A stretch of 55,196 nucleotides of DNA, from assembly GCA_963575745.1 (NCBI GenBank), contig CAUYUJ010000176.1, positions 62,001 through 117,196 of the forward strand, given 5' to 3'. Below, one piece after another: positions 14,833 through 53,471 of this stretch. Under the pieces are notes generated by a model. That model had not been told where the DNA came from, made no database searches, and saw only the letters and a list, made by a program, of their open reading frames with translations. Source of the DNA: Prorocentrum cordatum. Lineage: Eukaryota. A program made the translations under genes and the position numbers. Within the stretch, counting starts at the first letter, position 1. Each line of letters begins with the position of its first letter.

Positions 14833-14883
<51 letters not shown>

Positions 14884-14915: not shown

Positions 14916-15098
14916 TCATGACCCCACCACAGGCTCGGGACATGGGGGCGGCTGTGGAGGGAGGAGGACGAAGAGGAGGAACAGGATGAGGAAGAAGAGG
15001 AGGGGGAGGCGGAGGAGAACGAGGCGAGGAGGAGGAGGAGGACTAAATGGGCTAAATGCAAAGCGACAGGGGAGTCGCGCAGGAGAGCCCCTGGGGCC

Positions 15099-15284
15099 GC
15101 AGGAGGAACACGAGCCTCCGCAACCCCAGGGCCGTCGGCGCCGCAGGAGGAACACGAGCCTCCGCGGCGCGAAGCTGCCGCTGCAGGAGGAGCACGAGCC
15201 TCCGCAGCGGGGGGGGGCGCAGGAGGAACACGAGCCTCCGCGCCCCGAAGCCAAGCGAGCCGCAGGAGGAACACGAGCCTCCGC
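15099..15284. repeat. Five copies of 23-nt GCAGGAGGAACACGAGCCTCCGC separated by non-identical 13-21-nt spacers
   Basis: Copies at 15099, 15143, 15183 (1 mismatch), 15219 and 15262. Confidence 0.9.
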
Positions 15285-15344
15285 AGCCCTCATGACTTGG
15301 CCATTTTCTCGGGCAGCTCCCCGAGCATCAAAACTTGGCCAACT

Positions 15345-16181
15345 TCACGGGCCAGCCTCGCCGTTGTCGAACAGCTGCGACGCCTCGAAGCCCGCGCCGA
15401 GGACCTCCCCGCAGGCGGCCTCGTGCGCGGATCGGGCCTCCGCCAGCTGGGGCTCCAGCATCTTCACGGCGCACGCGGTGCCCAGGACCATCTGCTTGGC
15501 AGCGCTGACGGTCAGCGGCAGCCGCTTCTCCCTGGAGTCCTTCACGACGAGCTTCTCGGAGTCGCGCTTGGTCTCCCCCATGAACAGCCGAGCGCTCTCC
15601 AGGGCCAGCTCGTCAATGGCCGACCCCACCGCCTTGACCTCCAGGGTGGCCTGGCATCCAGGGGCGCACTTGAAGTCCTTCTTCATCAGCTCCCCCATCG
15701 GCTGAGCGCAAGGGTGCACTGAGACCTTCTCCTGCAGCTCCTCCTTCTCGTCCTCCAGGTCGTCCGTGGTGGGAGCCGACGCTGCATCGCCAGCCCCACG
15801 ACGGCGGCCACGCGCCCGGCGCCGGGCCTCGCCCGCCGTGGTGGGCACCGCCTGCGGCCCTGCGCCGAAATCGGCGTGCTGGGCCCAGCCGCGGAAGGCG
15901 CGACTGGCCCCAGAGGGCCGAGCCACGACGCCTTCGCGGCCCGCCCGCACCATCTCGGTCAGGTGGGGCCTTCCAAGCTGCTCCCTTGCCGCCACCTCCT
16001 CGTCCACCTCGGAAGCCAGGCGCGGGGCGAGGAGAGAAGCGCCCACGCGAAGGGCCGAAGCGACAGCGGCGGCCACCACCTGCCGCCCGCCGCCGCCTTC
16101 AGCAGCCCCTGCAGCTGCCGCCTTGACCAGCGGCGCAAGCAACGCCACCTGCTCCCCGACGAGGGGAAGGACCGCCGCCAT
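15345..16181 (-). CDS. Hypothetical 278-aa Ala-rich protein of element E2 (retroelement ORF1-like or retrogene)
   Basis: First ATG is 51 nt downstream of the SL; non-repetitive protein with N-terminal GGGRQVVAAAVASALR helix; no recognisable domain. Confidence 0.55.
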   Translation of the reverse strand: MAAVLPLVGEQVALLAPLVKAAAAGAAEGGGGRQVVAAAVASALRVGASLLAPRLASEVDEEVAAREQLGRPHLTEMVRAGREGVVARPSGASRAFRGWAQHADFGAGPQAVPTTAGEARRRARGRRRGAGDAASAPTTDDLEDEKEELQEKVSVHPCAQPMGELMKKDFKCAPGCQATLEVKAVGSAIDELALESARLFMGETKRDSEKLVVKDSREKRLPLTVSAAKQMVLGTACAVKMLEPQLAEARSAHEAACGEVLGAGFEASQLFDNGEAGP

Positions 16182-16232
16182 CGCCCGAGCCGCGGCAGGG
16201 GGCAGCAACAGCCCGCCTGGCGCCCAAGCAGG

Positions 16233-16254
16233 CTTGAGCCAACATGGCTACGGA
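16233..16254 (-). other. Dinoflagellate spliced leader relic (21/22 match)
   Basis: Reverse complement TCCGTAGCCATGTTGGCTCAAG vs DinoSL TCCGTAGCCATTTTGGCTCAAG. Confidence 0.93.
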
Positions 16255-16735
16255 GGAGGAGGAGGAGGAGGAGGAGGATCGGGGGGGGGAGGGGAGGGGG
16301 GGGGAGGGGGGGGGGAGGGGGAAGGGGGAGGGGGAGGAGGCAAGCTAGGTGCGCTCGCGTCAACATCTGACATCCTACCCCTCCCTCCCATCTCTTCCCA
16401 TTGAGCTACTTCATTGTCCTCTCACCGAATCGGGCTTCGCATCTGACCCTGTTACCTAAGAGGGAAAGGAGGAGGACGACGGCGCGATGAAAACGAAGAC
16501 GACGACGACGAAGACGACGACGACGACAACCACGACGACGACGACGACGGCGGCGACGACGACGACGACGACGATGAGGACGACCGGCGACGAAGACGGG
16601 ACGCCGCCCAAAAGGGGGGGGGCTTTCTGCGGCCCCAAAAATCAACGAATCGACACCGGATGTGTAATCACCTCCAATGTTTTTGCCGGGGATCATTTTC
16701 TAGATTTGGGGCTTCTTAAAAAGGATCGAAAACGT

Positions 16736-16918
16736 CGGCGCTGCAGCGGGAGCACGTTTTGGAACAACGAGAGGCGCAGAAATTGGGCCAGCGCTGCAGC
16801 GGGAGCACGATTCGGAACGAGCGGGAGCGCGGAAATGAGGCCAGCGCTGCAGCGGGAACACGATTCGGAAGGAGCGGGAGCCCGAAAATTAGGCCAGCGC
16901 CTCAGCGAGAGCAGCATT
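16736..16918. repeat. ~55-bp tandem repeat (GGCCAGCGCTGCAGCGGGAGCACGATTCGGAA...), about 3.5 copies
   Basis: Direct reading. Confidence 0.75.
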
Positions 16919-17299
16919 TTAGAAAAAAACACAAGCGAAAACCCAACTCCGGGGAATCCTGTGTGTAAAAAAACAGTACGCGGGGGGGTGCCGAACATCT
17001 TCCGGACGCCATCAGGGGAAGTGGGAGAGTAGTATTCATATTGTGTAATTGTAGAAGGAGGAGGAAGAGGAGGAGGAAGAGCAGGAGGAGGAGGAGGATC
17101 AAGTTGAGGATGAGGAGGGGGACCTATGTAAACCCATGAATCATCAACGGTGCTGCAATCAACGGTTGCAATGTTTTAAGGTGGTGGGTGTGCCTGGCGC
17201 TAAGGCGGCAACCACATTCCGAGACCACTTGGGCTCCATCCTTGAAAGTGTTGATATATGTTGCCAGTTATCAAAACGAGTACGCGCGGCGCGAAGGCA

Positions 17300-18350
17300 T
17301 GAACCACTTTCCGCTTGGGCCGTCCGGGAGCCATCTTGGAGGCTCCTTGGGCGGTTTTGGGGCCCTCGTGGAGGCCTCTTGCGCCGTCTCGGGCACTCGG
17401 AGGGCTGAAAAGAAGCACGTGCCAAAAACTGACAAAAACACAAGGATCCTCCTGTAAGATCTTTTCGAGGCCTCTCGGGGCCCTCTTGGGCCGTCTTGGG
17501 CCGTCTTAGAGGCTTGTTGGGCGGACTTGGAGGCATGTTGGACCCCCGCGGGCCGTCTTGGGGACCATCTTTGGTTATCGTGGCCGAACTTGGAGTTCAT
17601 TTTGGCCGTCTTGGAGGCCATCCGGGAGCCATCGGGAGCCTGTTGGATGCAGTTTGGACGCCTCTTGGGGGCAGTTTCGGGGCCTCTTGGAGCCTCTTTT
17701 GGGCCTCTTTTGGGCCTCTTGGGGGCCTCTCGGGGCGGGCCTCTTGGGGGCCTATTGGGGGGGCCTCCTGGGCACCTCTTGGGGTCTTCTGGGGGGCGAA
17801 AGGCGAGGATTTTCGGTTCGTGCTCGCTCTCCTGGACCCGGTGTGGGGCCGTCTTGGGGCCCTCTTGGGCCGTCTTGGGTGCCCCTTGGGCTGTCTTGGG
17901 GCTTTTTTAGGCCGTCTTGGGGCCATCTTGGCCTTTGGACCCTTTTGGGGTGGCCTTGGAGGCCTCTTGGGCTGTCTTGGGGCTTTAAGAAACCGAAAGA
18001 GACGAGAACGCCTAAATGTTCAAAAGCCAAGGAATTTATGATGTTGCCTCTTGGGACCCTCTCGGGAGGCCTCTTGGAGGCCTCTTGGGGCGTCTTGGAG
18101 GCCTCTTTGTGCCGTTGTGAGGCAATCTCGGGCGTCCTGACATGGCCGATCTCTGGGTGTCTCGGAGCCCTTTTGGACCGTGTTGGAGGCTGCTTGGGGA
18201 CCTCTTGGCCCGTCTTGGGCCCGTAGAAGTCACGCGGGGAGACGCGCCGAAGGCCAGAGGGCACCCGACAAGCCCAGTTAGATTTCGGAGTTTGAGGTCT
18301 GGGCCCCTCGAGGATCTCTCGGGACTGAGGACTGAGGCTCCACGGGTTTT
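17300..18350 (+). repeat. Degenerate GGCCTCTTGG/GCCGTCTTGG minisatellite-rich dispersed repeat
   Basis: 10-11-nt CTCTTGG/GTCTTGG units; same family at 24500-26280 and 47640-47850. Confidence 0.85.
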
Positions 18351-18360
18351 CAGCAAATTT

Positions 18361-18543
18361 CAAGAGGGAAAGAAACGCACAGACACAAGTAATCGTCACA
18401 AGTAATCGTCGACTCCCAGGAAAATATGGGAAACTAGGGGAACATATGGGAATGGGGGGAAAACAGAAACCTAGAGCATATGGGAAAATATGGGGGATCC
18501 CGTTATATTTCTGTGGATTTATTGGTGTGTCCCAGGGCCCCTT
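18361..18543 (+). mobile_element. Repeat family A copy
   Basis: Family A motifs, with small internal duplication ACAAGTAATCGTC x2. Confidence 0.75.
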
Positions 18544-19609
18544 CAAAATTACCCGAGGACGCGCCCACTCCGTGCACGCGGGCACGGTGGCAGAGATCTT
18601 TTCTCCTCGGGTGCTCTCCCGGAGGAGAGGGGGGTCGGCGCGAAGGGGCGAGGCGCGCGGGCCGGGAGGCGGCCGGCCAGATGCTGCCCTGGGTCGTTCT
18701 CTCTCTCGGTGGCAGCCCTGCGCGCGGCGCGCTCGTCGCCTGCGCGCGCGCGCCGGGCTCCGCTTGCGCCGCGGCCGCGGGGCAGCAGCCCCTGGAGCTG
18801 CAGGGGCGCTCCTCGCGCAGAGGCCTCCTCCCGGGCCGCGCCCGCGCCCGGGGCAGCCCACGGCTGGAGATGGGCTCGAGCGCAAGAAAGGGCGCGGCCC
18901 CCTCCTGCGGGCCACAGGGATGTACACCACCACGTCGATTCCTCCTCCCTCCTCCACCCTCCTCTTCCTCGCCTCTTTCCTGGCAGAGGGAGGGGATGAG
19001 GCAGGTGGTGGTGGTGTATACCTTGGGGCCCCCACCTCCCCTCCCCTCACTCTGCGCCCCCCTCCGCCTGGCCGGAAGGCCTCGGCCCCTTCCTCCCGAG
19101 ACGTTCTTGCGTCGCGGCGTTGCATGCAGAGGCCCGTCCGCGCGCGCGCGCCCCGAGCACAACGGGCGACGGCACTGCGAACTGCCCAGGTGCAGGAGGG
19201 GGAGGAGGGGGAGGGGCGAAAGGGGATGAGCAGAGGAGGAGGGGGAGGAAGGGGAGGATGGGGAGGGGGGAGGGGGGAGGGGGAGGGGGGAGGGGGAGGG
19301 GGAGGGGGAGAAGGAGGGGGAGGGGGGAGGGGGAGGGGGAGGGGGAGGGGGAGGGGGAGGGGGAAAATGGGGCAATGGGGAGGAGGAGGAGGAAAGGAGG
19401 AGGAGGAAGGAGGAAGGGAGGGAGGAGGGAGGGGGGGAGGGAGGTGGATGAGGGGGGAGAGGAGGAGGAGGAGGAGGGAGAGAGGAGTGGCCGCGGGACG
19501 AGGAGAAGGAAATATGGCGCTCACGCAGCGGGGACCGCAGTGGGGCGCTTGGGGCGGCCAGGCCGGTGCTGCACCCCTGGCGGCGGGGGCGGGGTGGCGC
19601 TCCATCCCC

Positions 19610-19822
19610 TTGTATATATGTGTATTATATATATTTATTGTATTACATATACAGATGTGCATATATATATATATATATATATGTGGGTGTGTATGTATAT
19701 ATACGCATAGAACCTACAGTATTCTACATTGTTTACATAGAAGGACGTCTATACATATATCTAGATATTATAGATGTGCGTACACAGATATTAATGTAGT
19801 CTATATATATATATATATATGT
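19610..19822. repeat. (TA)n-rich low-complexity tract
   Basis: Direct reading; one of the few strongly AT-rich patches in the window. Confidence 0.85.
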
Positions 19823-20160
19823 GCGATGCGAGGTGTCTTCTTTTCTGCAGCACGGGGTCCCCAGAAGGCCCGACCCTTTCCACGCGGCCCGCTCTCTCCA
19901 CGCGAGCCGCGGCGAGGGCCCCTGGAGGCCGAGAGCGGCCAGGCGCCTCCCGTCGTGCACGCGTTGCGCGACGCGAGCACGTCTGGTCGGGGGTGCCTCC
20001 ACATGGGAATTCTGATCCTAGATTTCGGTGTTGGTGGTAATACGTCGGTCACCTTGGAAGCCAGAATATTGCCACCATCACCGAGATCGGGATCGCCTTC
20101 CCTCGGCCGGTGGAGGCACACCACCGATCTTGGTGTTGGTGTCAACCTCTAGGCCTGCGA

Positions 20161-20830
20161 TCTGGGTCTGCCCCGCGGCCCGCCCCGACCCAACCCGAAG
20201 GCTCAGATTTGCCCTCGATTTCCAGTGGGGGGGGGTCGGGAAGCATCGAAAAAACACGTGTGGAACCCTTACCCCCCCCAACCCGAAATTCGGGTCTTCG
20301 GGTTGGGTTGGGGTGGTCTGGTAGATAGTCAGTCTGGGTCTGCCCCGCGGCCCGCCCCGACCTCGGGCCTGCCGAAGTCAAGCAGTGGCGACGCGTCTGG
20401 GCTTGCCTATATCGGGCCGGGCGAAAGGGGGGGATTGGGAAAGGGGGGGGTACGAAATCTGCTGCATGCAGCTGGTTTCGGCCCCACCGATGGGCCCATT
20501 CCTCGATGCATGGGCGTCTCCCGGCGCCGGGAGGCGCCGGGAAAATCAGCTACGCGAGCCGATTCTCAAACCCCCCCTTTGCTATCCCCCCCTTTCGCCC
20601 GACCCGAACGTCTGGGTCTGCCCCGCGGCCCGCCCCGACCTCGGGCCTGCCGAAGTCAAGCAGTGGCGAAGCGTCTGGGCTTGCCTATAGGCCTACTCCA
20701 GATTTCGTAATAAAGGGAGGGGGGTCTCACTTCGGGGGGGGGTCTCTTCCAGGCTATCTTGGAGGGCCTGGGGGGGTCTGGGGACGATGTTTTGGAGGGT
20801 TCTCCCACGGGGGAGGTCTGAAAGGGCGCT
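20161..20830. mobile_element. Cluster of three different MITEs, each preceded by a copy of a ~79-bp unit
   Basis: Units at 20161-20190 (partial), 20333-20411 and 20611-20689; MITEs at 20190-20325, 20412-20607 and 20696-~20830, with homologues at 42850, 40603 and 35846. Confidence 0.7.
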
Positions 20831-21343
20831 TCACGAACATGACCACAACCACTGCTCTGTTTCTGCTGGCTGGAGGGCGGCAGCAAAAGAAAAGCAGTGG
20901 CTGTGGTCGTTTTCGCGTCCCGTAGTAGTGGTCGGGAGCGCCGGTGCGAGTAGCCACCCTGCGTGTAATGGAAGCGGAGCGCGCTTGTCGAGGGTCCCCG
21001 AATCCCGAGTCGCACGTCTCCCCGGAGATCCCGTGCAGTGGTCGGGCGGCAGCGCCGGTGCGGCGTGCCGCTGGCTCACCATTTAGACGCCGCGTGCGGC
21101 TCCGCTCGCCGCCCCGGGGGGCGCACGCGGCAGGCGGGAGGGAGAGGCGCGGGGGCCTGTCGGGGGCGGCCAGGAGGTTACCAGTTTGAAGCATCTCACC
21201 TCGATGCCGATCTTAAGGATTCCCTCAGTTTCTGAGGGCCTGTCCCTAAGGTTGTTCTCGCTTTTTGCTCGCCCATCTCAGGGATAGGGATACGTTCGAG
21301 GCTGGTTAGGAGGGGGGTGATGACTGGGGGGGGGTGGATATCA

Positions 21344-21475
21344 CTCAGCATCGCTCGGGCGTGTGAATTGTTTCTCGGCGGGAACCATCGAGGAGCAGCC
21401 TGGACCATCGACCAGACAAGAAACACGCACGAAACCGACGAATGCACGGGGAGTGGACGTCCGAGCGACGGCAAG
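21344..21475 (+). mobile_element. MITE family B, TSD ATCA, inserted in a repeat whose empty site is at ~54190
   Basis: GGAT-ATCA|CTCAGCATCG...CGACGGCAAG|ATCA-CGGCG vs empty GGATATCATGGCG. Confidence 0.88.
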
Positions 21476-21640
21476 ATCACGGCGTGGGCCATGGTATTTC
21501 GCCAGATCCCATGGCGCCTCATCGTGTCTCATTGCGTCCCTGCCCCCCCCCCCTCTTTCAGCCGCGCGCATGCCGCCGGCCATGATTCGCGCCCCCCCCC
21601 TCTTGGACGCCCCCCTCTTGGCCGCGCCCGGGCTCAGGGG

Positions 21641-21774
21641 CCTGGCATCGCTTGGACGTGTGCATGCTTCTTCGGCGAGGACCATCGAGGAGCATCCTGG
21701 ATCGTCCTGCCAACAGAACAGGACGCGCGAAACCGAAAAGCGCATGGAGAATGGACGTCTGGGCGAATGGCAAG
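21641..21774 (+). mobile_element. MITE family B copy
   Basis: TIR cores and internal GGCGAGGACCATCGAGGAGCATC; flanks GGGG/GGAG. Confidence 0.75.
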
Positions 21775-23783
21775 GGAGGGTGGACGTTTTCTGAGGTCTT
21801 TGGACGCTTGCTCGTTGGTTCCCGGCGGCTTCCCACCCTCGGGATACGTTCGGGGGCTGCGCAGATCGTCCCGAACGATTGCTACGATCGGACCGAGGTA
21901 TGAGATCGAGGTCGGTTTGGAGGGGGTATCCTTATGTTTTTCGTGTTTGTCAGACGTTCTTGTGCATCGTGGGGCCAGCGTTGGGGAAGGCACCCTCGGA
22001 TGATTTTCAGTTTGGCCGGCGGAGGGTCTCATGTTCTTGAGGGGTGTGTTTCTGTCTCAGGTCCGATTGTAGAGGCCCGAGCTATGGCCCGACAACGCAC
22101 GGGGACGGGGAGAGGCTCGGGGGGCGGTCTTCTAAGAAGGCGGGCGGCTTCCCAGAAGGGCGCGGAGGCTTCAGGGACGGCCTGTGGGAGGGCTTCTGAG
22201 GAGGCCACCATGCCTTGCAGGAAGGCCGCCCCCGTCGCAGCACCCCCTTGTGCGCTTCGTCAACCCCCCTCTCTGCCCCCTTCCCCTGGTTCCCTCCACG
22301 GTTCCCTCTCAACAGGAATACATTCTCCTCTCTCCTCGGATCCTTTCCGTGGGGTACAAGACTTCAAAAGCTGGTCGTTCATCTGGTTTGTGTCAGTCGG
22401 AACGTATCTGGTGTTTCAAGCTGGTGCCTGCTGCAGCGCTGGCTTCTGTTTAGGCCAGTCGTGCAAAGTTATGCTTTCGCCCCAGCGCCGGCCACAATGC
22501 AGGACCCGGGCCCTCCATCGTCGTTGTCGCACCGCTCCTTTCCCCTCGTCCGCCTTCCATTGATCCTCCTGCTCCTCCCGCTCCCCCCTGCTCCTGCTTG
22601 TGCTCTTGCGGCTGCTGTTCCTGCACGTTCCTCCTCCTCTTCCTCTCGCTCGTCCTCCTGCTCCTCCGCCACCTCCTGCTCCTCCCCCACTGTGCACAGC
22701 TCCCCTTTTTTCTGACTGCGCAGAATTCGCGTGATGTGGGTCCTTGGAGATCTCCAGGCCCGCTACGCCACCCGTCGGCGGGTTGAAACACAGCAGCGCC
22801 ATGGGAAGGGCTGGGCGGCAGGGGCAGGAGGTCAGATACAGCGAAAAGTAAGGATGGGCAACCCTCGAAACCCTCGCCAAGGGTACTACTTCTACTCTCC
22901 CGGATCTCATAAACAATGGGGACAATGGTGGTAAAACTATGGGGGGTGGGGGTGGGGTTCTGCTTCTGGGGCTGGGGGGGGGGTCTCCGGAAGCTACCGT
23001 CAAAACACATTTGTGGGGGGGTCCCTCTCGATTTTGGACCTTGTTGTTGGGTTGCCTGTCTTGGAGGGTGGTGGAGGGGGGGGGGGGGCGGGGTCCCAGA
23101 CACCGGCCGCCAACGGGCCTTTTTTTCACAGAAAAACACTTTTTTTTTAGAGGGAAAAAAAAAACGTTGAACGGCGCTGAGCCCCCCCCCCCACTATTAT
23201 GAGATTTGGAGTACCTTTGTATCCGTGCCTCCTCGGTTTGCCCACGCTGGCCGCGCCCCACTCGAACAGCTTGGAAACCTGGCGTCCAAGGCCCTCGCAT
23301 ACCTCTCGCGCAAACCGTCTGACACGGGCCGATTGTATGGCCCGTGCGCATCTGGCTTGCTCGTCATCCTCTCGGCCGTCCGACCCCCCCTCTGCCTTCA
23401 CCCACCGCGCGTTTCGCTGCTCTCGCAAAGTGCCTGCTCGCAGATGTCCGGAACACGCGTCCTTGCCTCGATGCAAATGGATCGTGAGGCCTTCGCGGCG
23501 GAGCCAGGCCGTTTGCGAGCATTTACATTTATGTGTGCCAGTCGTGGCACGCGCTTGTCTATGCCCCTTCTGCCCATAATCGTGCAATCGTGTATGGCAG
23601 ATTGTTGTTGGAGGTGTGGTTGTCTAGGCCCCAAGACCCCCATTGGAGGTGGCCGACTCGGTGCGGGCATGGTCGCTGCATGTAAGCAACACCCCACCTG
23701 AGCAGGCAAAACAACTTTGGCCAATATTCAGAGGTAGCCATCGGTTGCGTTTTCGTTGTTTATAAAGAGCCAGGGTCTGGAGC

Positions 23784-24120
23784 TCACGGCGCCAACGACC
23801 ATGATCAGAATTACAGTTGTTTTGTGCATTGCAGTTTGTTTGCATTGCAGTTTTTGTTTGCATTGCAGTTTTGTCGTTCTAGCTTCAGCTTTGGATTCCG
23901 AGAGGGGAGGCGAGAGCGGTTTGGGGAGGTCCAGAGAGGGTCTGAAGCCCACGGTGCCAACGACTATAATCAGAATTACAGTTCTTTTTGTGCATTGCAG
24001 TTTTTTTGAATTGCAGTTTTTGTTTGCATTGCAGCTGTGCCGGTCTAGCTTCAGCTGTGGATTCCGCATGCGAGGCGAGATCGGTTTGGGGAGGTCCAGG
24101 GAGGGTCTGAAGCCCACGGC
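23784..24120. repeat. ~165-bp tandem duplication containing TTGCATTGCAGTTT repeats
   Basis: CACGG(C/T)GCCAACGAC..ATCAGAATTACAGTT and GGGGAGGTCCAG..GGTCTGAAGCCCACGG each occur twice. Confidence 0.8.
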
Positions 24121-24331
24121 GCTAGTCACCGCTGTGTGGGCAGCTCTACCAAGCAAGCGAATATGAGGAGGTAGAAGGCAGGAGGAGGTATGAGGAGGCA
24201 GAAGAAAGCATAATGTGGCAACAGACTGCAGAAGGAGGTAGGAGAAACTCCGCATGCTAACAACATCCAGAACGGACGACGACGTCAGCGACGACGACAA
24301 CGTCGACGATGCCAATAACAACGACGACGCA

Positions 24332-24496
24332 CGGTAGGTTCGCGTCGTGTCGACCAGCGGCGACCCCGCCGCCAGCGATTCAGAATCGTTCGATGCTGAA
24401 CGATCTGACGTTTCGAAAACGGCCGATCGTTCACGGTTGAGCGATCCCCGCGGTGTCAGGAACCAACGCCAGGATTGGCACGACGCGAACCTGCCG
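24332..24496. mobile_element. MITE copy homologous to 9264-9451
   Basis: Same TIRs; flanks CA/TG instead of TA. Confidence 0.75.
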
Positions 24497-24499
24497 TGT

Positions 24500-26280
24500 T
24501 TGGCCATGGGAGCTTTTGGAAGCGTCTGTGGGCCTTGAAATGAAGCCCTTCGGGCCCTCTTAGGGCGCTCTTGGAGCGCTCCTGGGCCTTCCTGCAGAGC
24601 CCTTGGGGCCGTCTTGGTTCCTCTTGGCCCTCTCTTGGGCCATCTTGGAGCCATCTTCGAGGCCATCGATGAAAGAAAGGAAGGTACTTTTCTCCGCCCC
24701 CGCGTCAGGGCACCCAACATCGCTTCTTGGGCCCCGCTTGGAGCGCTCTTGGAGCTGCATTCGAGCCCTCTTGGGACCTTTTTCGGTCATCTTGGGGCCA
24801 TCTTGAGCACACGAGAGCCCATCGGAAGCGATAAGGCGAGAAAGCAAACATCTTTGATTTTATAGAATCGCTTCGCTCATTCCGCCAGTCCGTATTATGC
24901 CATCGCTGGCGTTAGGGCCGTTTGGGGGCCTTTTGGGGGCCTCTTGGGGTTCTCTTAAGGCATTTTGAGAACCTCTTGGAGCCTGTTGGGGGTCTCTTGA
25001 GGGCTTCTTGGGGCCTCCTGGGCTCCTCTTGGAGCGGAGGGCTCAAAATGTCTGTTAGGGCTCCCCGTCTGGGCAGCCTCTTGGGGCCGTCCTGGGGCCA
25101 GGCCTCTTGGGCCGTCTTGAGGCCCTCTTGGACCGTCTCGGGGCCCTCTTGGAGGCCTCTTCGGCCGTCTTGGAGCGATATTTAGGGCCTGTTCGGCCGT
25201 GGATGCCAGGACCTTGCTGGTCCGGGGACTTCCAGGGGCCGTCCCGCGCGCGCGCGAACTAGAAATATCTTTTACCAGTTACTGAAGATTTTAGCGCGCC
25301 TCTGGCCCGTTGGGCCGGCGAATTCAGCTTTTAGAAGGGTTTCGACCCTCTTGGAGGCGTTTCGGGGCGCTCTTGAAGCCGTCTTGGAGCCATCTGGGGC
25401 CCCTCTGAGGCCTCTCTTGGGCCATCTTGGTGGCCATCGACCAACAAAGAAGGCGGCGACAATTTGGATTCCCCCGTCGGAACCTTCAAAACCACATCGT
25501 GGAGCTCTCTAGAGACGTTCTTGTGGCGGTCTTGAGCGCTCTTGGGGCGATCTTGGGCCTCTCTTGGACCCCTCTTGGGGATCTCTGGGTCCATCCCAGA
25601 GCCACCTCGAGGCTTCAGAAGCCCATCGGAAGCGAAAAGGCGAGATGGCAAACAACAAACATTGATTACTATTATGTTTTGTAAGGTTGTTCACCTCTCC
25701 GTGGCGTTTTTGGGAGGCCCTTTGACCATTGAGAGCCATCTCGGAGGGATCTTGAAGCCTCTTGGAGGTATGTTGCAAGCTATATTTGGCCATGTTTGGC
25801 TATTTTCAGCAACCTTGGAGGCCATCGTTAGCTCTTTTGGGCCTTCTTGGAGCCATCTTGGACGCTCTGACCGCTCGCGAAAGGTCCCGTCCAGGTCCAC
25901 GGGGAGGGGGGGTACCGAAGAGGAAGAAGGGTTTTTTGTTCAAGAAGGGACTATCAAAACTACTCAAGCCCGAAGGGCTGGTGGGATATTAGCCCCCTCC
26001 TCTGGGACCGTCAACATTGCCTCTTGGGCCCCTCTGCGGCCCCTCTTGGTCGCTTCTTGGAGGCCTCTTGGGCGTCTTGGGCGTCTCTTGGCAGTCCCGA
26101 GAGCCTCTTGAAGCATCTTAGCTGCCTCTGTGGGCGGAGAGACTCTTTAGGCCTCTTGGGGGTCTCTTTGAGACCGCTTGGGATGGGAGTCTTTGGAAGC
26201 CTCTTGGGGGTTTCCTTGGAGCCCAGTGGGCGCCTCTTGGGCCCCTCTTGGAAACCTATGGAGCCCTCTTGGGACCATGA
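24500..26280 (+). repeat. GGCCTCTTGG-type degenerate minisatellite repeat region
   Basis: Dense CTCTTGG units. Confidence 0.85.
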
Positions 26281-27074
26281 AAGGATGAGCAGGAGAAGAA
26301 GTAGAGAGCCGCGTCAGCTGCCATATCAGTTCTTCCGCCCAAAAGCAAAGTAAGTCGCTGGGACATAAGAACTTGTCGCTTCAAGCGGCTTAGAACATAG
26401 CAACGGGATGTGTACATTGGCTTGTTGATCATCTACTAATCGCCTCCATGGTTTCTTCCTTCCTCCGCAGGTGGGGAGGAGGCGGGGAGGATGAGGAGGA
26501 GGAGGAGGAGGAGAGGTTTTCTTCCTCCTTTTCCTTGTCATCCTCTTCCTCCATCCTACTCCTACTCCTCTTCTTCCGCGCTACCTTGCTGCGCGATGTT
26601 CAATTCATTGTGAGTATAGCACTCACGGGACAAACAGACAACACGGCGTCGATGGTGTGCGTATCGTATCCGCCTTACCTCCTCGTCCTCCTCTTCCTTC
26701 CCCTTCCTCCTCCTCCTCCTCCTCCTCCTCCTCCTCCTCCTCCTCCTCCTCCTCCTCCTCCTCCGCCTCCTCCCCCTCCTCCTCCTCCTCCTCCCCCTCC
26801 TCCTTCTCATGTTCATCCTCATTCTCATCCTCATCCTCCTCTTCCTCCCAATCGAGGGGGAGGGGGGTGATGCCCAGCCCGCGCCCTCGCGCCGAGGCGA
26901 CGGCCGTCGCGGCCGGCGGCCCTGGCGGCGAGCAGCCGCCCGTGGTGTGCCAGTGCGCCGACGCCCCAGGGAATCTTCGCCCGTGGGGGGGGGGGGGGGG
27001 GGGCGACTCGGAGGAGGCCGAGTGGAGACGGCAGTCGTTGGCCTTCAGAGGGCCCCGTCGTCGCCACGGCTGGA

Positions 27075-27464
27075 CCTCCTCCTCCCTCTTCTCCTCATCC
27101 TCCCCTCCTCCGACTCCTCCGAGCCTCCTCCTCTCCTCCTCCTCCTCCTCCCCCTCCCTCCCCTCCTCCTCCTCCTCCTCCTCCTCCTCCTCCTCCTCCT
27201 CCTCCTCCTCCTCCTCCTCCTCCTCCTCCTCCTCCTCCTCCTTCTCCTCCTCCTCCTCCTCCTCCTCCTCCTCCTCCACTCCTCTCCTCCTCCTCCTCCT
27301 CCTCCTCCTCCCCCTCTCCCTCCCCCTCCCCCTCTCCTCCTCCTCCTCATCCTCCTCCTCCTCCTCCTCTCCTCCCTCCTCCTTCTCCTCCTCCTCCTCC
27401 TCTCCTCCTCCTCCTCCCCTCCTCCTCCTCCTCCTCCTCCTCCTCCTCCTCCTCCTCCTCCTCC
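27075..27464. repeat. (TCC)n microsatellite, 5' flank of the LINE
   Basis: Direct reading. Confidence 0.95.
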
Positions 27465-27486
27465 TCCGTAGCCATTTTGGCTCAAG
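27465..27486 (+). other. Dinoflagellate spliced leader (exact 22-mer)
   Basis: TCCGTAGCCATTTTGGCTCAAG; followed by ATG rather than a GT intron, so it is not an SL RNA gene. Confidence 0.97.
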
Positions 27487-30400
27487 ATGCCTGGTTCCTT
27501 TGGGGCCAAAACGGATACCGCTAGTCCGCGGCCAGTTCTCAGAGTTTTTCGCCTTCTCTGCAGGAGTTGGGCGCCTGCCTTTCCAGTCTTTCCCGAGCTG
27601 CTCTCGCCATGGTCCCCCCGCCCTGGCGCACCGAGGATGGCTGGACCAGCGTCGGCGGAGGCAAGAAGGGGAAGAAGTTCCAGACGTACACGTACTGCTC
27701 GTGCGGGCATTGGACGTACGATCGTCTGCTGGCTCGCCGCGGCTTCTGCGTGGGTTGCGGCACGGCCATGCAACCTACTGGTGGTGGGAAGAGTGGTGCA
27801 GGAGGAGCCAACGGAGCTCCCAGCGGTGGCGGCGGCGGTGCGTCTGGTGTGGATCCCGCGGCAGTGGCAGCGGCCAGGAAGGCGGCCGCACTGCTGCCCC
27901 CCGCTGCTGCAGCCGAGTTGCTTGCTACCCTCAAGATCAAGCCAGATCCTCCCCCACCGATGCCCCTCGGCGAGGCCGAGATCAGCTCCGCCGAGGCCAA
28001 GAAGCGTGCTGCTACCCGTGCGGTCCAGCAGGCCATCGACGCCCGCCTCCGCCTCGAGGAGCAGATCGCTGCAGCCGACAAGAAGGTCGACGAAGCTATC
28101 AAGAAGGAGGAGGAGGCCCAGCAGGCCGTCGAGCTGGCTGCCCGCAACCTCGCTGCGAGGGTCCTCCCAACGCCCGAGGAGACGCTGCCTTCATCGGGCT
28201 CGGTGCTGCACATCGGCGCGCTGCTGGAGGATCCTGACTCGGTGCGTCTGGATTTCGGCGAATCGATCGATGTCACGGGCCCCGCTTTCTCGGATGAGGA
28301 CAGAGCGAAGTTCAGCAATTTCGCCGAGCAGCAGCGCATCGCTGCCACGGAGCTCCTTCGCAAGGCTTTCTCGGGCGTCGCCGAGCAGGCCAAGAAGCTC
28401 CAGTCCGAGTACGTATCTTACGTCAAGCAGATCCAGAAGAAGCGCAAGGCGGAGGACGGCCAGGGCGTTGCAGTCCAGCAGCCGTCGGCCCCTCCCGCAG
28501 CGGCGGCCAGCTCCCCTGCAGGCGCTGCGGCGGAGGCCAGCCAGGAGCCTCCTGGCCCAGCGGCGCCTGCCGCCTCGCCCACGCCCGCTGAGGCCGCCGA
28601 GCTGGAGGCAGAGCGGCGTCGGGAGGCCGTCCGCGCCGCCAGCGCGGCACGCGCAGCTGCCAAGCAGGAGGCGGCGGCGGCGGCCCCCCCGCGGGGGTAG
28701 CCTGGGCGCTGACGACGAGGGCCGCTCCCTGAGGCTGGTGTACGGGAACATCTCGTGCTGGGGGCCCCAGGCTGAGCGCTGGCTGGCGGAGACGCTAGCA
28801 GACGTGGTGGTCTTGGTTGAGACCAGGGTGAGGGGTGTTAAGTACACCCAGATGTGCGCTGCCGCGAGGCGGCTGGGCTGGAAGGCTGTTGGCGGAGAGG
28901 CTGACGCCACGGAAGCCTTTTCCACGTCGGCGGGGGTGGTGATCTTCGCCCGCGCCCGACTTGGGCTCGCCTCGCTGTGCCTCGAGGCGAACGGAGGCTG
29001 GACATCAAGTTCCTGTTCGCGCTGGTGCGTGGCCACCCTCAGGCTGCGCCGCGTCACGCTCACCATCGTTCCGATCTACATGGTCTCGGGCGAGGAGTTG
29101 GGCGGCCGCAACCTCAAGTTGCTTTCTCAAGTGGGTGCTCGGCTCGGCCAGTTGGCGGGCCCTCTCTTCATCGTTGGGGACTGGCAGTCTGTGTCCAGCG
29201 AGCTTGCGACGACTGGCTTCATGGCGGCGCTTGGCCTGGTCGAGGTGCAGTCGGGTTTGCAGGTCACGTGTACTGGCGGCAGGGGCGCAGGGCGTGCCAT
29301 CGACTACGCCCTGGTCTCGTCCTCCTTCGCGTCGGCTGTGCAGTTTGCAGGGGTCGACGTCTCGGCCCCGTGGGGGACCCACCTCGCGCTCTCCTACAAC
29401 ATCCTGGCCAACCCGAGGTCGCTCATGGGCTGGTGTGTGGTCATGCCGAAGGCGCTGGACATCTTTGTCGCCTCCAACGAGAGCTACGACCTGGACTGGG
29501 ACGCCGCCCTCTCTGAGGCCCGTGCCTTTCGCCAGCGCTTTTCTGCCCGTTTTACCTCTAACTTTGAGACGGCGAGCCTCGCCATTGCAGATCACGATGT
29601 GCCGCAGACTGCCCTTTTGCTCGGAAGTCAGCTCGGGGAGTGGGCCCTAGCTTTGGAGTTTGTGCATTGTGCCAAAAAAGGTATACCTCGCTCGCAGTGG
29701 CCTCTGTACGTAGGACGATGTCAGCAGCCTCGCCTCAAGTACGTTCCCATCGTGCCTCGTGCCAGCGACGGCCCTCCTCTCGCTGACCGCCATGCCCGTT
29801 TTTGGCAGGCCCTCGCTGTGCAGGCCTCCTTGCTGTTGCGTTTGGCTGATCCCGAGGCGGACCCATCCGAGGCATCTACTCCGCGCGCCGGCTGCGGTGA
29901 GCAGTTCTGGAGCACGATGCGTGGGCTTGAGGCCCTGCAGCTGCCCCCGCCTTTTGATCCGAACGACGCGGTGGAGGGAGCGATCCTTGAGCGTTGGATC
30001 TTTCGGCTCCGCCAGCTTCGCTCGCTGTCGCTTGACAGCCTTCAGCAGATCGCGGAGGAGGCTAAGGAGCAGGGAGTCCAGGCTGCCCAGCGCGCGGCTG
30101 CGGCGGCCCGTGCGCGCTGGCGTTCCTGGTTGTCCGACGCTTTGGCGGGTTCTGCCAGCAAAGCCCATAGGCTCCTCCGCGATCCTCCCGCCTTCTGCCG
30201 CGCCGAGCCTGTCTGGGACGGAGAGCCAGCCTCCACGCCCGCTGCCGTGCTAGAGGCGGAAGGCGCTGCGTGGCACGCAATCTGGTGCAAGCACTCGCGG
30301 CCCGAGGCTTTGGAGGCCCTCGCGAGGATCCGCCGTGCGGCTCTTTCGTCAGACTGCTTCGAGCCTGTCACTCCTGACCAGGTGAGGGGGGCGCTAAAGA

Positions 30401-38539: not shown

Positions 38540-39620
38540 TCCGCCAACACCACTTCGGTTGAAGCGAATGCGCGGCTCGGCGTTTCCCTCCCGCGGCGAG
38601 CGCGAGCTTAAATGGGACCCCGTGGACGCGGGTGCCATCGTCGAGGCGGTGGGCGCGGCTCTGTTGCAGCCAAGGCACCTCGGCGCACGGTCGCGGCTGT
38701 GTGGCGCGTTCGGCAGTCAGCGCCGCGCTCTTCGCGCTGCGCGGCGGCGTGGCGCCGCCTGCTGCTGGCGTAGCGCTTCGCGGAGCTGAGCGACAAGCTG
38801 CTCTTCCGCTGCTGCTGGTGCTGCTGTTGCTGATCTGCCGAGCGTCCCCGCTGCTGCTGCTGCTGCGCGCGCTCGAGCCTCCACGGAGGCGCAGCGCGAG
38901 CGGCGCCGCTGACGCCGTCTGCGCCTGGCGGGGAGGAGATTGCTGGAGAGAGGAAAGGCGGCTGCTGCTGCTGCTGAAGGTGGCTCGAGTCGCCGCTGTC
39001 GCACCCATGTCGCTGGACGGCCCCGAATTCGCGGCCACCGACAACGCCGTGGGCTTCGACGACGACTCGTGGGCTGACGCGGCCGCGCCATCTCGGCGTG
39101 GGCGGCGCCGCGCTCCCCGGCGTGCTGCGCAGGCACCTGCGGCGGCTGAAGCCGATGGCCTCGCCTTGCCGTATGCAGAGGCCGTGCCAGTGGCGGCCCC
39201 GGCTGAGGACGAGCGCACGGCCGTGCTCGCGCAGGTCATCTCGGTGTCGCCCTGCCCCGACTGCGATTCCATCTTCTCTGGCCTCGCGCTGGGTGGGCTG
39301 ATGGAGGTCCGCGGGGTGTTTTGCAAGTCGTGAAGCTTGCCTGGCTCCCTTGGGCCCCACTGCCGCCTCGTGGTTGGGCCGCTGCTTGCGTGCCACAGCT
39401 TCGCAGCGGGTGACCTATTGACTGGCACTTCCCCGCCTGTTGGCACAACGTGTAGGCCTTTGCTTGCATGCTCGGTTGGTGTGCCGGCAAGCGGAGCCCT
39501 CCATGTTCAGCATGCGCCGCTGCGCTGGCAGCTGGCGAGGAGTTCGTTAGGATGCGCTCTCCCGACTTCGAACCCCAGCTCCCGCACCCGCGGATGTTGG
39601 GATCGCTACGGCATGCGCTT
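38540..39620 (+). pseudogene. Decayed SL-relic-headed short retro-insertion (element E4), homologous to E3
   Basis: CCACTTCGGTTGAAG is 11/15 identical to the SL 3' part and follows a TCC tract; frameshifted VAAKAPRRTVAAV..ARSAVSAALFAL and DDSWAD motifs are shared with E3; 3' end approximate. Confidence 0.6.
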
Positions 39621-39849
39621 TTTCCTCCTGCGCGTTCTCCTCCTCCCCCTCCTCCCATTCCTCATTCCCTTCCTCCTTTGCGTCTTCTTCCCTCTCTCTC
39701 TCTCTCTCCAGCCTCTTCCTACCCCCATCCAATTGCTCCGCAATAGCTCCCCCTCGTCTGGCCACCAGGCCTGTCGGTAGGGCGGGCCAGTCGCTTCGCG
39801 TGGGACCCCCTTTCGGTCATGACCCCGGAGCAGCGGAGCAGGTTATGTC

Positions 39850-46644: not shown

Positions 46645-47107
46645 CATCACCACCATCATCATCACCGTCATCATCATACTCACCACCATCATCATCACCA
46701 CCACCATCTCATCAGCATCACCATCACCATCACCACCACCGTCATCGTCGTCATCATCTTCACCACCGCCATCAGCATCAGCACCACCATCTCATCAGCA
46801 TCACCACCACCACCACCGTCATCGTTGTCATCATCACCATGATCACCACCACCATCATAATCATCCTCATCATCATCGGCAGCACCCCCATCATCAGCAA
46901 CAGCATCATCATCATAATCATCATCACCGCCATCACCATCATCATCACACTCATCATCACTTTCAGTATCATCATCAGCATCATCATGATCATCATCACA
47001 CGCACTCACACTCCGAACCACATACACACATATACCATTATCACCACCACCACCACCATCACTATCACCATCACCGTCACGATCATCACCATCATCATCA
47101 CCATCAC

Positions 47108-47148
<41 letters not shown>

Positions 47149-50100: not shown

Positions 50101-51244
50101 GTTGTTTCCGTTTTGGTCGCCTTCACCGCAGGGGAAGAGCAAAGCACCCGCGGCAACGACCCGCGGAGCTGGAGGGGGAGGTGGAATTTGGAGCAGTTTT
50201 GCCGTATGACCTCAGCACGGTTCATTGTTTGGTTGCCCGATTGTCGAACTTGTTGAGAGGTGGGATCGGCCCCCCTCGGCAAGTAGTTCTGTTTGATTCG
50301 AGGGTGCTGCGCCTCTCATGTGTTGAGCGTATTTATTACCCGACATGTTGTGTCACATGTTGCAGCAGCAGCACGTGGTGCCCCAAGGACCCAATGACCC
50401 GAGGAGGATTGTGTTCTCCTCCCCCTGCCTCAGATGATTTGTGTTTTTGTTCTGGCGCTCAGGCTCGCCCCGCTTAGCCCCCTCGCGCGGACACTTTTGC
50501 GGGCACCGTCACCGTCACCGTCCCCCCGCGTCAGGCGCGGAGCCACCGGGCATCACCGAGCGGGTTCCACTACTCGCAAAGTGCCTACTCGCAAACTTCC
50601 GAAAAAAACACACGTCTGGCTCGATGTAATTTATCGTAGATCCCCTGCGGCGGGTCGAGGACATTTGCGAGTAGTTATTTTGCGAGTAGTGAAACGCGCG
50701 GCGGGGGTCGGGGAGGCGTGCTTACCCCCGCGTGCCGTCCCCCCCTCCGGGCCCTGCCCGCCTCTCCTCGTGCCCGCCTGCCCGCTTGGGAGGCTTTGGT
50801 TGGGAGGAGGAGGAGGAGGAGGAGGAGGAGGAGGAGAAGGAGGAGAAGAGAGGAGGGGGATGAGTCAAAAGGAGCAGGAGGTGGAGGAGGAGGAGGAGGA
50901 GGAGGAGGAAGAGGAGGAGGGAGGGTACTCAGGGAGGAGGAGGAGGAGGAGGAGGAGGAGGAGGAGGAGGAGGAGGAGGAGGAGGAGGAGGAGGAGGAGG
51001 AGGAGGAGGGGGAGGGGAGGAGGAGGAGGCGGAGGAGGAGGAGGAGGAGGCGGAGGCGGAGGCGGAGGAGGAGGAGGAGGAGAGGGAGGGAGGAGGAGGA
51101 AGGAAGGGCAGGAAGAGCCGCGGGGCTGTGACCGCCCCGCCGCGAACACCGCCACACCAAAAGACCCGTGGGCCAACACAGCTGGAGTCAGCGGGGCCAG
51201 GACGAGGAGGGGAGCAGGAGGATGCGAATGAATGGGAGGATCCG

Positions 51245-52175
51245 TATGAAGAGGATGATGATGATACTGATGGTGGTGTTGATGAAGATTCTGATGATGA
51301 TGGTGGTGATAATGCTGATGGTGATAATGAATGGGGTGAGGTTGATGGTGATGATGACGGTGATGGTGGTGATCATGATGACAAGGATGATGACGATGAT
51401 GATGCTGATGATGAGGATGGTGGTAATGGTGACAGTGACGGTGATGGGAATGGTGATGGTGATGATGATCCTGATGATGGTGATCGTGATGATGCCGATG
51501 ACCATGTTGATGATGATGATGATGAGGATTGATACTGATTGATGATACTGATGATGATGCTGACGATGATCCTGATGATGGTGATGCAGTTGTTGCTGGT
51601 GCTGCTGCTGATGATGCTAATGATGGTAACGGTGATGATGATGCTGATGATAATGATGATGAGGATGAGGACGACGCTAATGATAGTGACGGTGGCGCTG
51701 GCCATGCTGGTCCTGATGGTGACGACGATGCCGATTATGCTGATGATGATGGTCATGATGATTATGTTGACGTGGATGATGATGATGATGGTGATGATGA
51801 TGATGATGATGATCATGCTGACGATGATGATGATGCGGACGATGATGCTGATGATGTTGATGGTGATGATGCTGACGATGATAATACGATAAGCCTGATT
51901 AGGATGATTATACTGCTGATGGTTATGATCATGCTACAGATGTTGATCATGCTGATGCTGATGATGATAATGATGATGATGCCGATGATCATGACGACGA
52001 CGATGACGACGATGATGACGACGACGACGATAATGATGACGGTTAATTTGATGGTGACGGTGATCATGCTGATATTGATGATGTTTGTGAGGGTGAGGGT
52101 GATGGTGATGGTGACGGTGATTGTGGTGGTGCCGCTGCTGCTGCTGCTGCTGCTGCTGCTGATGACCATGATACT
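51245..52175. repeat. Degenerate (GAT)n microsatellite
   Basis: Direct reading; yields poly-D/M/I ORFs. Confidence 0.9.
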
Positions 52176-52594
52176 GAGGGGGAGGAGGAGGAGGTAGGGA
52201 GGAGGAGGAGGAGGAGGAGGAGGAGGAGGAGGAGGAGGAGGACGAGGACGAGGATGAGGAGGAGGAGGGGGTGAAGGAAGAGGAGAGGAGGGGGAGGAGG
52301 AGGAGGAGGAGGAGGAGTTGGAGGAGGAGGAGGAGGAGGAGGAGGGGGAGGAGGAGCAGAAGGAAAAGGAGGAGGAGAGGAGGAGGAGGAGGAGGGGAGA
52401 GGAGGAGCGACGACCAGGAGGAGGAGGAGGAGGAGGAGGAGGAGGAGGAGGAGGAGGAGGAGAGGAGGACGAGGAGCGACGAGGAGCGACGAGGAGCGAC
52501 GAGGAGCGAGGAGGAGGAGAAGGAGGAGGAGGAGGAGGAGGAGCGACGAGGAGGATAAGGAGGTGGAGGAGGAGGAGAGGAAGCGGAGGAGGAG

Positions 52595-53471
52595 CATGGG
52601 GAGGCGCAGAAGGAGCGCGCGAGCAGCAGGTGCGGCGTCCGAGGACACGAACACCGACCGCCTCAGAAGACCATGTGATGGAGCGGCGGACTACATGGCT
52701 GGGTGCGGAGGAAGTTCCAAGCACCCTCCCCTCCGCGGGGGGCGCGGCATTATCGCCGAGCCTTCCGCCGCAGCAGCCGCGCCAGCGGCGGCAGCAGCAG
52801 GGACCGCAGGAGCCTCCCCAGCACCAGCACGAACAGGGAGGGCGACCGCGGCCGACGGCCGCCCGCCGTCAGTCCACGAGTCATCGGGCAGCTCCTCATC
52901 CTCCATGTCGTCGTGCCTCGCGTCTTCAAGGGCCGCCGCGTCAGCAGCAGCTTGAGCAGGCCGAGGGCCAGCTCCGGCTGCGTCAGCAGGCGCCGCCCCA
53001 CCCGCGTTTGGGATCGGGCCACCAGCCGCAGGCGCGCCGCCACGAGCCACGGCACGCACCTCCGCCAGGCGCACCCTGCGGCGCCGCCTCCGCGCCGCCT
53101 CCGCGCGGCCTTCGCCGCAGAAGCGGCAGGCCTCGCAGCGGGCGCCGGCAGCCCATCCCCACGTCCAGCTCCTCGACCCCCTCCAGGTCCCAAGCCGTCG
53201 TCGGGCTCGGCGCCCGCCGCCTCCGCAGCCGCCACACCCGGCATCGGCGCCAGCGCGAAGAGCGCGGCCGAGACGGCGGAGCGGGCGCCGGCCGTTGCCG
53301 TGCGGCGGGGGGGCGCCTTTTCCCACGGCTGCCCGCACCGCGGCCTCCAGGAGGGCCGCGTCGGCACCAGAGGTTGCCCCTCCAGGCCCCGCCACCCCGC
53401 AGCAGCGCCTCGCCGAGAGGGGGCGCGCGCGGGCGAGGCCGTGCAACCGCTTGAGCCAAAATGGCTACGGA
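52595..53471 (-). mobile_element. SL-headed short retro-insertion (element E3) in a (TCC)n tract, with frameshifted ORF
   Basis: Exact SL at the 5' end; LLEAAVRAAVGKGAP/RRTATAGARSAVSAALFAL, RRRRRRVRLA and DDSWTD motifs; GGA tracts on both sides; 3' end approximate. Confidence 0.72.
53450..53471 (-). other. Dinoflagellate spliced leader (exact 22-mer, minus strand)
   Basis: CTTGAGCCAAAATGGCTACGGA is the reverse complement of DinoSL. Confidence 0.97.

Follow-up and report, generated by a model that had tools for sequence, protein, structure and literature searches.

The locus examined here is a 55,196-nucleotide (nt) stretch of the nuclear genome of the dinoflagellate Prorocentrum cordatum (contig CAUYUJ010000176.1, positions 62,001 to 117,196 of the forward strand; this whole stretch is called the window). 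The question that it raises is how sequences headed by the dinoflagellate spliced leader (DinoSL, or SL) come to lie within (TCC)n microsatellites. Four inserts, E1 to E4, are involved. E1 is a long interspersed nuclear element (LINE) that begins with a complete SL, E2 and E3 are shorter SL-headed units without a reverse transcriptase (RT), and E4 is a decayed sequence with a degenerate SL-like start. An earlier note on this DNA had taken all four as one dedicated system of an autonomous element and its non-autonomous partners. The association between the SL and TCC is largely real and far beyond chance. As to its cause, the sequences incline us, with a little more confidence than doubt, towards a TCC-microsatellite-targeting LINE whose machinery would also retro-copy SL-capped mRNAs into the same target. 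The inserts and their parts are listed below, with open reading frames (ORFs) in amino acids (aa), untranslated regions (UTRs), and tandem arrays mapped with Tandem Repeats Finder (TRF).

27465-33741, + strand: E1, whole element
26678-27464, + strand: E1 5' flank, (TCC)n arrays at 26678-26848 and 27075-27467 split by a 226-nt unrelated segment (TRF, sequence reading)
27465-27486, + strand: E1 DinoSL, exact over 22 nt; its initial TCC keeps the phase of the repeat before it
27609-28700, + strand: E1 ORF1 (363 aa); Cys/His knuckle close to the N-terminus, central part coiled-coil-like
28774-32601, + strand: E1 ORF2, main frame, with predicted APE endonuclease, reverse transcriptase, CCHC knuckle and start of RNase H (homologues, family profile)
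32529-33656, + strand: E1 ORF2, C-terminal part in another frame (375 codons), with the remaining RNase H and a Cys-rich tail (profile positions 1267-1524, E 3.5e-41)
33657-33741, + strand: E1 3' UTR, 85 nt, ending ...GCATTGCAAAAC, without poly(A)
33742-33902, + strand: E1 3' flank, (TCC)n array (TRF)
15043-16254, - strand: E2, 1,212 nt, SL-headed
16233-16254, - strand: E2 SL with 1 mismatch, CCATGTTGG
15345-16181, - strand: intact 278-aa ORF of E2, behind a leader of 72 nt
15096-15287, - strand: tandem units of about 40/76 nt in the E2 3' UTR
16255-16281 and 14984-15042, - strand: E2 flanks, TCC tracts on its own strand, without poly(A) (TRF, reading)
52600-53471, - strand: E3, exact SL (53450-53471) and ~850 nt, 3' boundary uncertain by a few nt
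53472-53545 and 52176-52599, - strand: E3 flanks, TCC tracts on its own strand
38540-39622, + strand: E4, decayed, with a degenerate SL-like start, between degenerate TCC-rich tracts
39007-39333, + strand: E4 ORF, 108 aa

Spliced leaders at TCC junctions

Both strands of the window were scanned with the 21-nt DinoSL core at up to 3 mismatches, and the result was compared with 100 shuffles of the window. The core occurs at 27466-27486 (+, 0 mismatches), 53450-53470 (-, 0 mismatches) and 16233-16253 (-, 1 mismatch), and zero times in the shuffles; with the leading T included, these SLs start at 27465, 53471 and 16254. A wider ungapped scan, which allowed up to 7 mismatches, returned extra sites in the window at the chance level only (1-4 such sites per shuffle in 20 shuffles). 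On the SL strand, the (TCC)n repeat passes in phase and uninterrupted into the TCC of the SL itself in all three clear copies (E1, E2 and E3), just as the earlier note had described. For the background rate, all strand positions of the window were examined for an in-phase (TCC)4 directly upstream, up to 2 mismatches being allowed. Such a tract precedes 1.07% of positions, and three out of three would thus be expected by chance with a probability of ~1.2e-6. The junction falls at nucleotide 1 of the SL in E1, E2 and E3, give or take a 3-nt ambiguity with the repeat. Because the DNA copies begin at this nucleotide, their templates were mature full-length trans-spliced RNAs.

At the other end, TCC-rich DNA lies directly 3' of all four inserts on their own strand, and an A-run or poly(A) remnant is absent from the 3' junction in 4/4. 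The 3' end of E1 joins (TCC)n directly, which can be read as a tail or as the target, and a target-site duplication is unreadable inside a microsatellite. The four SL-headed inserts with TCC on both sides in one polarity that the earlier note reported can therefore be kept in part: the SLs at 27465, 16254 and 53471 are clear (0-1 mismatches) and their 5' tracts are in phase, the 3' flank is TCC-rich throughout, the relic at 38540 is not significant alone, and the common polarity (3/3 or 4/4) is by itself statistically weak, with a chance of 1/8 to 1/16.

TCC-like sequence makes up 4.0% of each strand and ~8% of the window lies in TCC tracts; TCC-class arrays contribute 3,522 of the ~10,522 nt of simple-repeat arrays (sum of TRF rows). 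If simple-repeat arrays were hit according to their length, the placement of 3/3 clear SL copies in TCC arrays would have a chance of ~0.04. No clear SL copy is located in the 5-kb (GTA)n array or in the (CAT)/(ATG)/(GAC)/(ACT) arrays of the window. A preference for TCC over the other trinucleotide repeats of the window is supported.

The LINE E1 and its companions

Behind its SL, E1 has a leader of 122 nt. The frame of ORF2 is open from 27487, and homology begins at ~28780. ORF1 is intact and has no Pfam match; its knuckle motif is common to one relative, P0074. When E1 alone is compared with Pfam, a weak zf-RVT match is obtained and no APE match. An exhaustive HMMER search returned 4,082 relatives at E<=1e-3 and 242 at E<=1e-30, and the full-length homologues carry the Pfam domains Exo_endo_phos, RVT_1, zf-RVT and RNase_H, with Exo_endo_phos found in P0009 and P0013. 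The catalytic columns of E1 were judged in a family alignment of 17 sequences. The endonuclease invariants (E16, N113, D136 of GDWN, D177 and H203) and the RT invariants (D670/F674/D676, G729, the DD motif D762-D763, and K801) are all kept, and the same is true of the invariant columns in the CCHC knuckle and at the beginning of RNase H. The solved structure closest to the family profile is human L1 ORF2p (E 4e-10), and RNase HI is also matched (E 1e-7). This profile covers positions 3-1524 of 1529 in E1 with one frameshift, and the main frame accounts for positions 3-1270. The autonomous APE-RT-RNase H LINE of the earlier note is thus recognizable in its domains, through homologues and invariant columns, and is qualified by a near-complete ORF2 that is split by the frameshift.

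Two public fragments, P0005 and P0007, are 96-97% identical to E1, and the E1 family therefore has other young copies. Judged by these comparisons, E1 is a young, nearly intact APE-type LINE belonging to a large dinoflagellate LINE family, with its APE, RT and RNase H assigned via homologues. P0005 (96% identical) reads ORF1 and ORF2 as one frame, omitting ~40 nt that include the ORF1 stop of the window copy (28668-28707, +). This fusion reflects either a true indel that distinguishes the copies or a spurious intron introduced by gene prediction. Searches of viral_contigs with E1 ORF2, P0006 and P0004 returned no E1-related loci. Logan contigs of four DNA runs that correspond to 15000-34900 have lengths of a few hundred nt, and none of them spans a junction. 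In run X1, depth is 5.6 and 6.4 for pieces of E2 and 13.7-48.8 for pieces of E1, depth not being equal to copy number; at 29569 and 32792, both letters are present in this run, as would be expected from two or more E1 variants.

E2 encodes a protein with relatives in 11 clusters (22 sequences, 56-91% identity), all of them named from Prorocentrum cordatum, and it is thus not the single-copy retrogene that the earlier note had held out as the contrary outcome. The proteins of this family have no Pfam domain. Their N-terminal ~130 aa are conserved and their C-termini are variable, a pattern that resembles a gene family more than a SINE-like element (SINE, short interspersed nuclear element). The E2 leader reads CCATGTTGG in place of CCATTTTGG, a T-to-G change. 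An identical change in a non-canonical DinoSL is quoted for Polarella in the literature passages available, and E2 may therefore carry a variant SL, not one mutated in this copy. In the 3' UTR, ~5 tandem units (GCGGAGGCTCGTGTTCCTCCTGCG and spacers) form strong hairpins.

E3 has one frame that is open for 252 codons without an early ATG. In E4, an SL at 38540 is found neither at <=3 mismatches nor at <=7 mismatches ungapped, and the gapped SL score at this site is equalled by 4.3% of window positions. The first 42 nt of E4 do, however, resemble the first 36 nt of E3 (SL plus 14 nt), a similarity that 32 of 15,760 background windows score as well. Over the first ~430 nt, the two inserts run collinear and include identical stretches of 18 and 12 nt; their local alignment score of 46 compares with a shuffle maximum of 37. 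E4 is probably an old, decayed paralogue of E3 that was once SL-headed, and its SL-like start gains credibility from this resemblance. We read E3 and E4 as two members of one family, both of them lying sense in TCC-rich tracts. Neither contains a long ATG-initiated ORF in the conserved frame, and both look decayed. No protein relatives of E3 and E4 were found (the conceptual protein of E4 was searched). A profile of the N-terminal region of the E2 family, run against the six-frame translation of the window, scores E2 alone; the next hit is a frame of E4 with a non-significant E of 0.53.

The relation of E2-E4 to E1 bears directly on the earlier proposal of a dedicated system. By blastn, nothing but the SL is common to E1 and E2-E4, and the LINE family profile has no match in E2-E4, which are indeed RT-less as had been stated. 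The 3'-terminal 90 nt of the four inserts give fold z-scores of -0.5, -4.4, -0.9 and -1.2. There is no common fold; E2 alone folds better than shuffles at its 3' end, via its own repeat (last 90 nt, z = -4.4). For the 5' 80 nt of E1-E3, folding does not surpass that of shuffles. The shared 3' end expected of a SINE-like partner of E1 was not found, and with neither a 3' tail nor a sequence or fold common to E1 and E2-E4, the sequences do not establish a dedicated system. A genome-encoded DinoSL stands at the 5' end of a transcript-like unit in E1, E2 and E3, and E4 would join them indirectly, through its likeness to E3. E1, E2 and E3 are unrelated in sequence and therefore represent three independent insertion events. 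From these features we infer that E2 and E3/E4 are processed retrocopies and not dedicated partner elements.

Routes into the microsatellites

Under the reading that we favour, the E1 endonuclease would act on a (TCC)n.(GGA)n tract by nicking its GGA strand. The ...GGA-3'OH end so released would prime reverse transcription on UCC-containing 3' RNA sequence, possibly on read-through into a downstream repeat; because of this site of priming, poly(A) would not be kept. The end of the full-length cDNA, complementary to 5'-UCC..., would then pair with the TCC top strand and yield a seamless 5' junction. Occasionally the same machinery would act in trans, and the mRNAs of E2 and E3/E4 would be copied into the same target in the same orientation. 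More speculatively, (TCC)n could also serve as the polypyrimidine tract in a new round of trans-splicing. Over repeated cycles, a LINE should pile up SL relics unless the SL is replaced exactly or the master is SL-less. Since E1 has one SL and no truncated relic, either an SL-less master copy or an exact replacement of the SL in each generation would, again speculatively, be called for.

To place the window among other genomic SL copies, public contigs were scanned, which gave 119 loci in viral_contigs (L001-L119) and at least 126 metagenome loci (L120-L245). The metagenome loci hold at least 132 SL copies, which were classified by heuristic rules. Among the copies listed, the classes are as follows.

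SL RNA genes (SL followed by a GT intron): 27
Viral-like: 19
Tandem SL: 2
Upstream sequence too short: 6
Retrocopy-like: 78

A simple repeat lies within 25 nt upstream of 18 of the 78 listed retrocopy-like copies (23%), compared with 216 of 7,697 background windows from the same loci (2.8%; p ~5e-12). With a strict 20-nt rule, the figures are 7/78 and 24/7,908 (p ~5e-9). The motifs upstream of the listed retrocopies include TG, CA, TA, CAT, TC, GGGT and others. SL retrocopies directly behind microsatellites thus seem to be a general dinoflagellate pattern, of which the TCC in the window would be one instance. Since the upstream repeats are varied and never TCC among the matches listed, microhomology between the SL and TCC is not the general reason for repeat adjacency. 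A polypyrimidine tract as a general rule was likewise rejected, as TG, TA and GGGT occur among the upstream repeats. In several metagenome retrocopies, for example L134 and L173, the SL is followed by one or two truncated relics (CCATTTTGGCTCAAG).

The viral_contigs loci represent a different class. They hold 139 SL copies in 119 loci, 0/139 of them behind TCC, and nearly all stand directly behind a conserved AT-rich motif of ~45 nt on giant-virus-bin contigs. Given this promoter-like context, they would be an unfair control for TCC and were set aside as such. The motif reads TTGATAAATCAATTTTTTATTTTTTATTTTTAAATATAAATTTTA or a TTGAAA...TAGTA variant, with differing sequences following the SL. 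An exact DinoSL is encoded many times per contig, for example in L011-L013, L020, L023 and L081. This arrangement looks like a promoter-plus-leader cassette at many gene starts, that is, SL mimicry without trans-splicing. In the passages of the literature available, SL mimicry is mentioned only for an RNA virus (PMC9651163).

Several results weigh against a TCC-targeting LINE that also copies mRNAs. E1 is tied to E2-E4 by target, polarity, full-SL junction and missing poly(A) alone. Its target specificity depends on a single copy with visible flanks (n=1). The profile search found no second piece of an E1-type LINE in the window, 5'-truncated fragments in other TCC tracts included, and no empty-site joint is present among the Logan joints listed. 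LINEs usually leave many 5'-truncated copies. ORF2 of E1 is interrupted by a single frameshift near 32580, in RNase H, which is possibly an assembly error. In the metagenome set, TCC precedes 0/78 retrocopy-like SLs among the matches listed, and the varied motifs fit a general property of repeats, such as breakage, as well as they fit endonuclease specificity. This LINE is encoded at none of the 245 SL loci within the flanks compared (tblastn, 166 proteins). Finally, the loss of the tail of a polyadenylated mRNA upon insertion is left unexplained.

A broader version of the same idea, which we hold to be unlikely, makes E1 a representative of promoter-less LINEs that would live on host mRNA processing and insert sense in pyrimidine microsatellites. 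The (TCC)n tract together with the AG of the encoded SL would act as a portable trans-splice acceptor, read-through transcripts would be re-capped with one SL, the cDNA would be sealed via UCC, and families with different repeat targets would be the engine of SL-tagged retroposition. Re-capping with exactly one SL would explain the missing relic SL of E1, and LINE families with different targets would explain the 23% of listed metagenome retrocopies that adjoin a simple repeat. The use of host trans-splicing in place of a promoter and the making of the 5' junction by SL/TCC microhomology, both suggested in the earlier note, would be compatible with the data from the window.

Two further explanations appear improbable to a similar degree. 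One retains the dedicated system: E2-E4 would be RT-less parasites of E1, with trans-splicing as a promoter substitute and SL/TCC microhomology setting the 5' junction. It draws on the target, polarity and junction style that E2-E4 have in common with E1, on an E2 family that is multi-copy, named from one species only and not a single-copy retrogene, and on E3/E4 as two diverged copies of one family in TCC tracts. Multi-copy families are, however, ordinary in dinoflagellates, and E2 encodes an intact 278-aa protein with a family pattern that is gene-like and not SINE-like. In addition, the E2-family profile misses E3 and E4, and E1 and E2-E4 have no 3' tail, other sequence beyond the SL or 3' structure in common.

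The other explanation dispenses with the endonuclease. Here, the (TCC)n.(GGA)n mirror repeats, or simple repeats at large, would break, and SL-capped cDNAs from any RT would patch the breaks, with the complement of 5'-UCC setting the orientation. The many motifs that adjoin the listed metagenome retrocopies (18/78 against 2.8%) favour such a property of repeats over one enzyme, and the in-phase TCC of the SL in all three clear copies of the window would follow from it as well. This capture does not predict that the three clear copies would all lie in TCC and none in the other arrays of the window (the chance of ~0.04 given above), nor that a LINE with its own APE endonuclease would occupy the same target, and 5' microhomology does not explain 3' junctions that lie directly at TCC without poly(A).

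The least probable account, in which retrocopies land anywhere and those behind a pyrimidine tract are kept, or TCC-flanked units are duplicated at the DNA level, could draw on TCC at both flanks, on TCC tracts that make up ~8% of the window and contain numerous other inserts, and on an E3/E4 pair too diverged to be told from DNA-level copying, but it is opposed by the three independent events of E1, E2 and E3, by a junction placed exactly at SL nucleotide 1 each time and, as regards selection for expression, by the decay of E3/E4 and their lack of a long ATG-initiated ORF.

Sequence surroundings and known systems

The remaining tandem arrays of the window, besides the TCC tracts, are the following.

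9-5030: (GTA)n microsatellite, 5 kb, 1,673 copies, 79% matches
14738-14913: (GAC)n array
46645-47148: (CAT)n array
51246-52039: (ATG)n array
54447-54626: (TGA)n array
54833-55156: (ACT)n array

The first 4 kb of the window have a GC content of 0.39 and a GC skew of 0.75 because of the (GTA)n array. Rfam has no match anywhere in the window. In each of the four runs, the Logan contigs that correspond to 16328-18983, 19648-22967, 24296-25623 and 34256-34900 reach depths in the thousands, and numerous joints connect these stretches to one another; they are high-copy interspersed repeats of no assigned kind around the inserts. Short unique segments lie between TCC tracts just upstream of E1 (26851-27075, +) and E3 (53511-53787, -), and both end in ...GCTGGAC right before TCC. 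A CGTCGCCACGGCTGGAC-like 20-mer end at 27055-27075 is found again at 10938-10957 (+). These segments may be SL-less (5'-truncated) inserts of another repeat family with the same type of target.

Among LINEs of other organisms, SLACS, CZAR and CRE of trypanosomatids and NeSL-1 of nematodes target the SL RNA gene, where their insertion interrupts the SL exon. E1 resembles them as a LINE tied to the SL sequence in a trans-splicing organism. Insertion of E1 into an SL gene is nevertheless ruled out: the whole, unsplit SL precedes the element, the upstream DNA is a TCC repeat and not an SL-gene promoter, and no SL intron follows. The same holds for E2 and E3, in which a full SL with TCC flanks passes directly into the sequence of the insert; a GT... 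intron follows the SL in the 27 SL-gene-like metagenome copies listed and in none of E1-E3. Human LINE-1 is an autonomous APE-RT element that also copies cellular mRNAs; it needs poly(A), leaves A-tails and mostly 5'-truncated copies, and uses loose TTTT/A sites. The reading favoured here shares with it an autonomous APE-RT machinery that also copies cellular mRNAs, but differs in the lack of an A-tail, the full-length 5' ends, the microsatellite target and the RNase H domain.

APE-type LINEs specific to microsatellites are described from animals in the available passages on this group: Koshi in (TTC)n, Kibi in (TC)n, Mino in (AC)n, Waldo in (ACAY)n and Dong in (TAA)n (PMC3812793). Like these, E1 is an APE-encoding non-LTR (long terminal repeat) element in a simple repeat, with the repeat on both sides, and the TTC of Koshi resembles the TCC of E1 as a pyrimidine-rich trinucleotide target (PMC3812793). 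Unlike the animal elements as described there, E1 is SL-headed and accompanied by co-targeted mRNA retrocopies, and its specificity rests on one LINE copy and 2-3 retrocopies; the RNase H domain is a further difference from the Koshi type. For trypanosomatid L1Tc, the descriptions at hand give unspliced transcripts from an internal promoter (Pr77), trimmed by a ribozyme of the hepatitis delta virus (HDV) type. As with L1Tc/ingi, whose host combines polycistronic transcription and trans-splicing, E1 is a LINE that must define its own 5' end; unlike L1Tc, it carries the host SL and was thus handled by the host's mRNA processing.

According to the passages available from Song et al. 2017, cDNA copies of trans-spliced mRNAs can be told by a DinoSL encoded in the genome, and relic SLs are found upstream of genes; there, the TTT(T/G) of the SL is also proposed as a promoter, and the source of RT for dinoflagellate retroposition is stated to be unknown (PMC5585692). 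E2, E3 and E4 fit this class of DinoSL-tagged mRNA retrocopies. The window differs from the retrogenes as described in those passages: the SL is present in full without a truncated relic, it also stands at the head of a LINE, and it lies in a defined microsatellite with a defined polarity. The passages on DinoSL retrogenes name no responsible retroelement and no insertion-site preference. In the full-text literature, supplements and subscription-only papers aside, the parts available contain no SL-headed LINE, no TCC or other microsatellite target of dinoflagellate retrocopies and no adjacency of the SL to simple repeats. What is new is the combination of a microsatellite-targeting LINE with SL-tagged retroposition, both parts being known separately.

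Dinoflagellate genomes are huge and rich in gene duplicates, and retroposition is regarded as one of the main forces behind them; the accessible texts state that the responsible RT and mechanism are unknown (PMC5585692; PMC12014239). The window offers a concrete candidate for this engine, an SL-headed LINE whose insertion signature recurs in the SL-headed mRNA copies beside it. This signature, an SL in phase behind a simple repeat without poly(A), can be counted in any dinoflagellate assembly, which makes the idea directly testable. If the target specificity is real, E1 would also offer a natural "safe-harbour" integrator for organisms in which transformation is very difficult.

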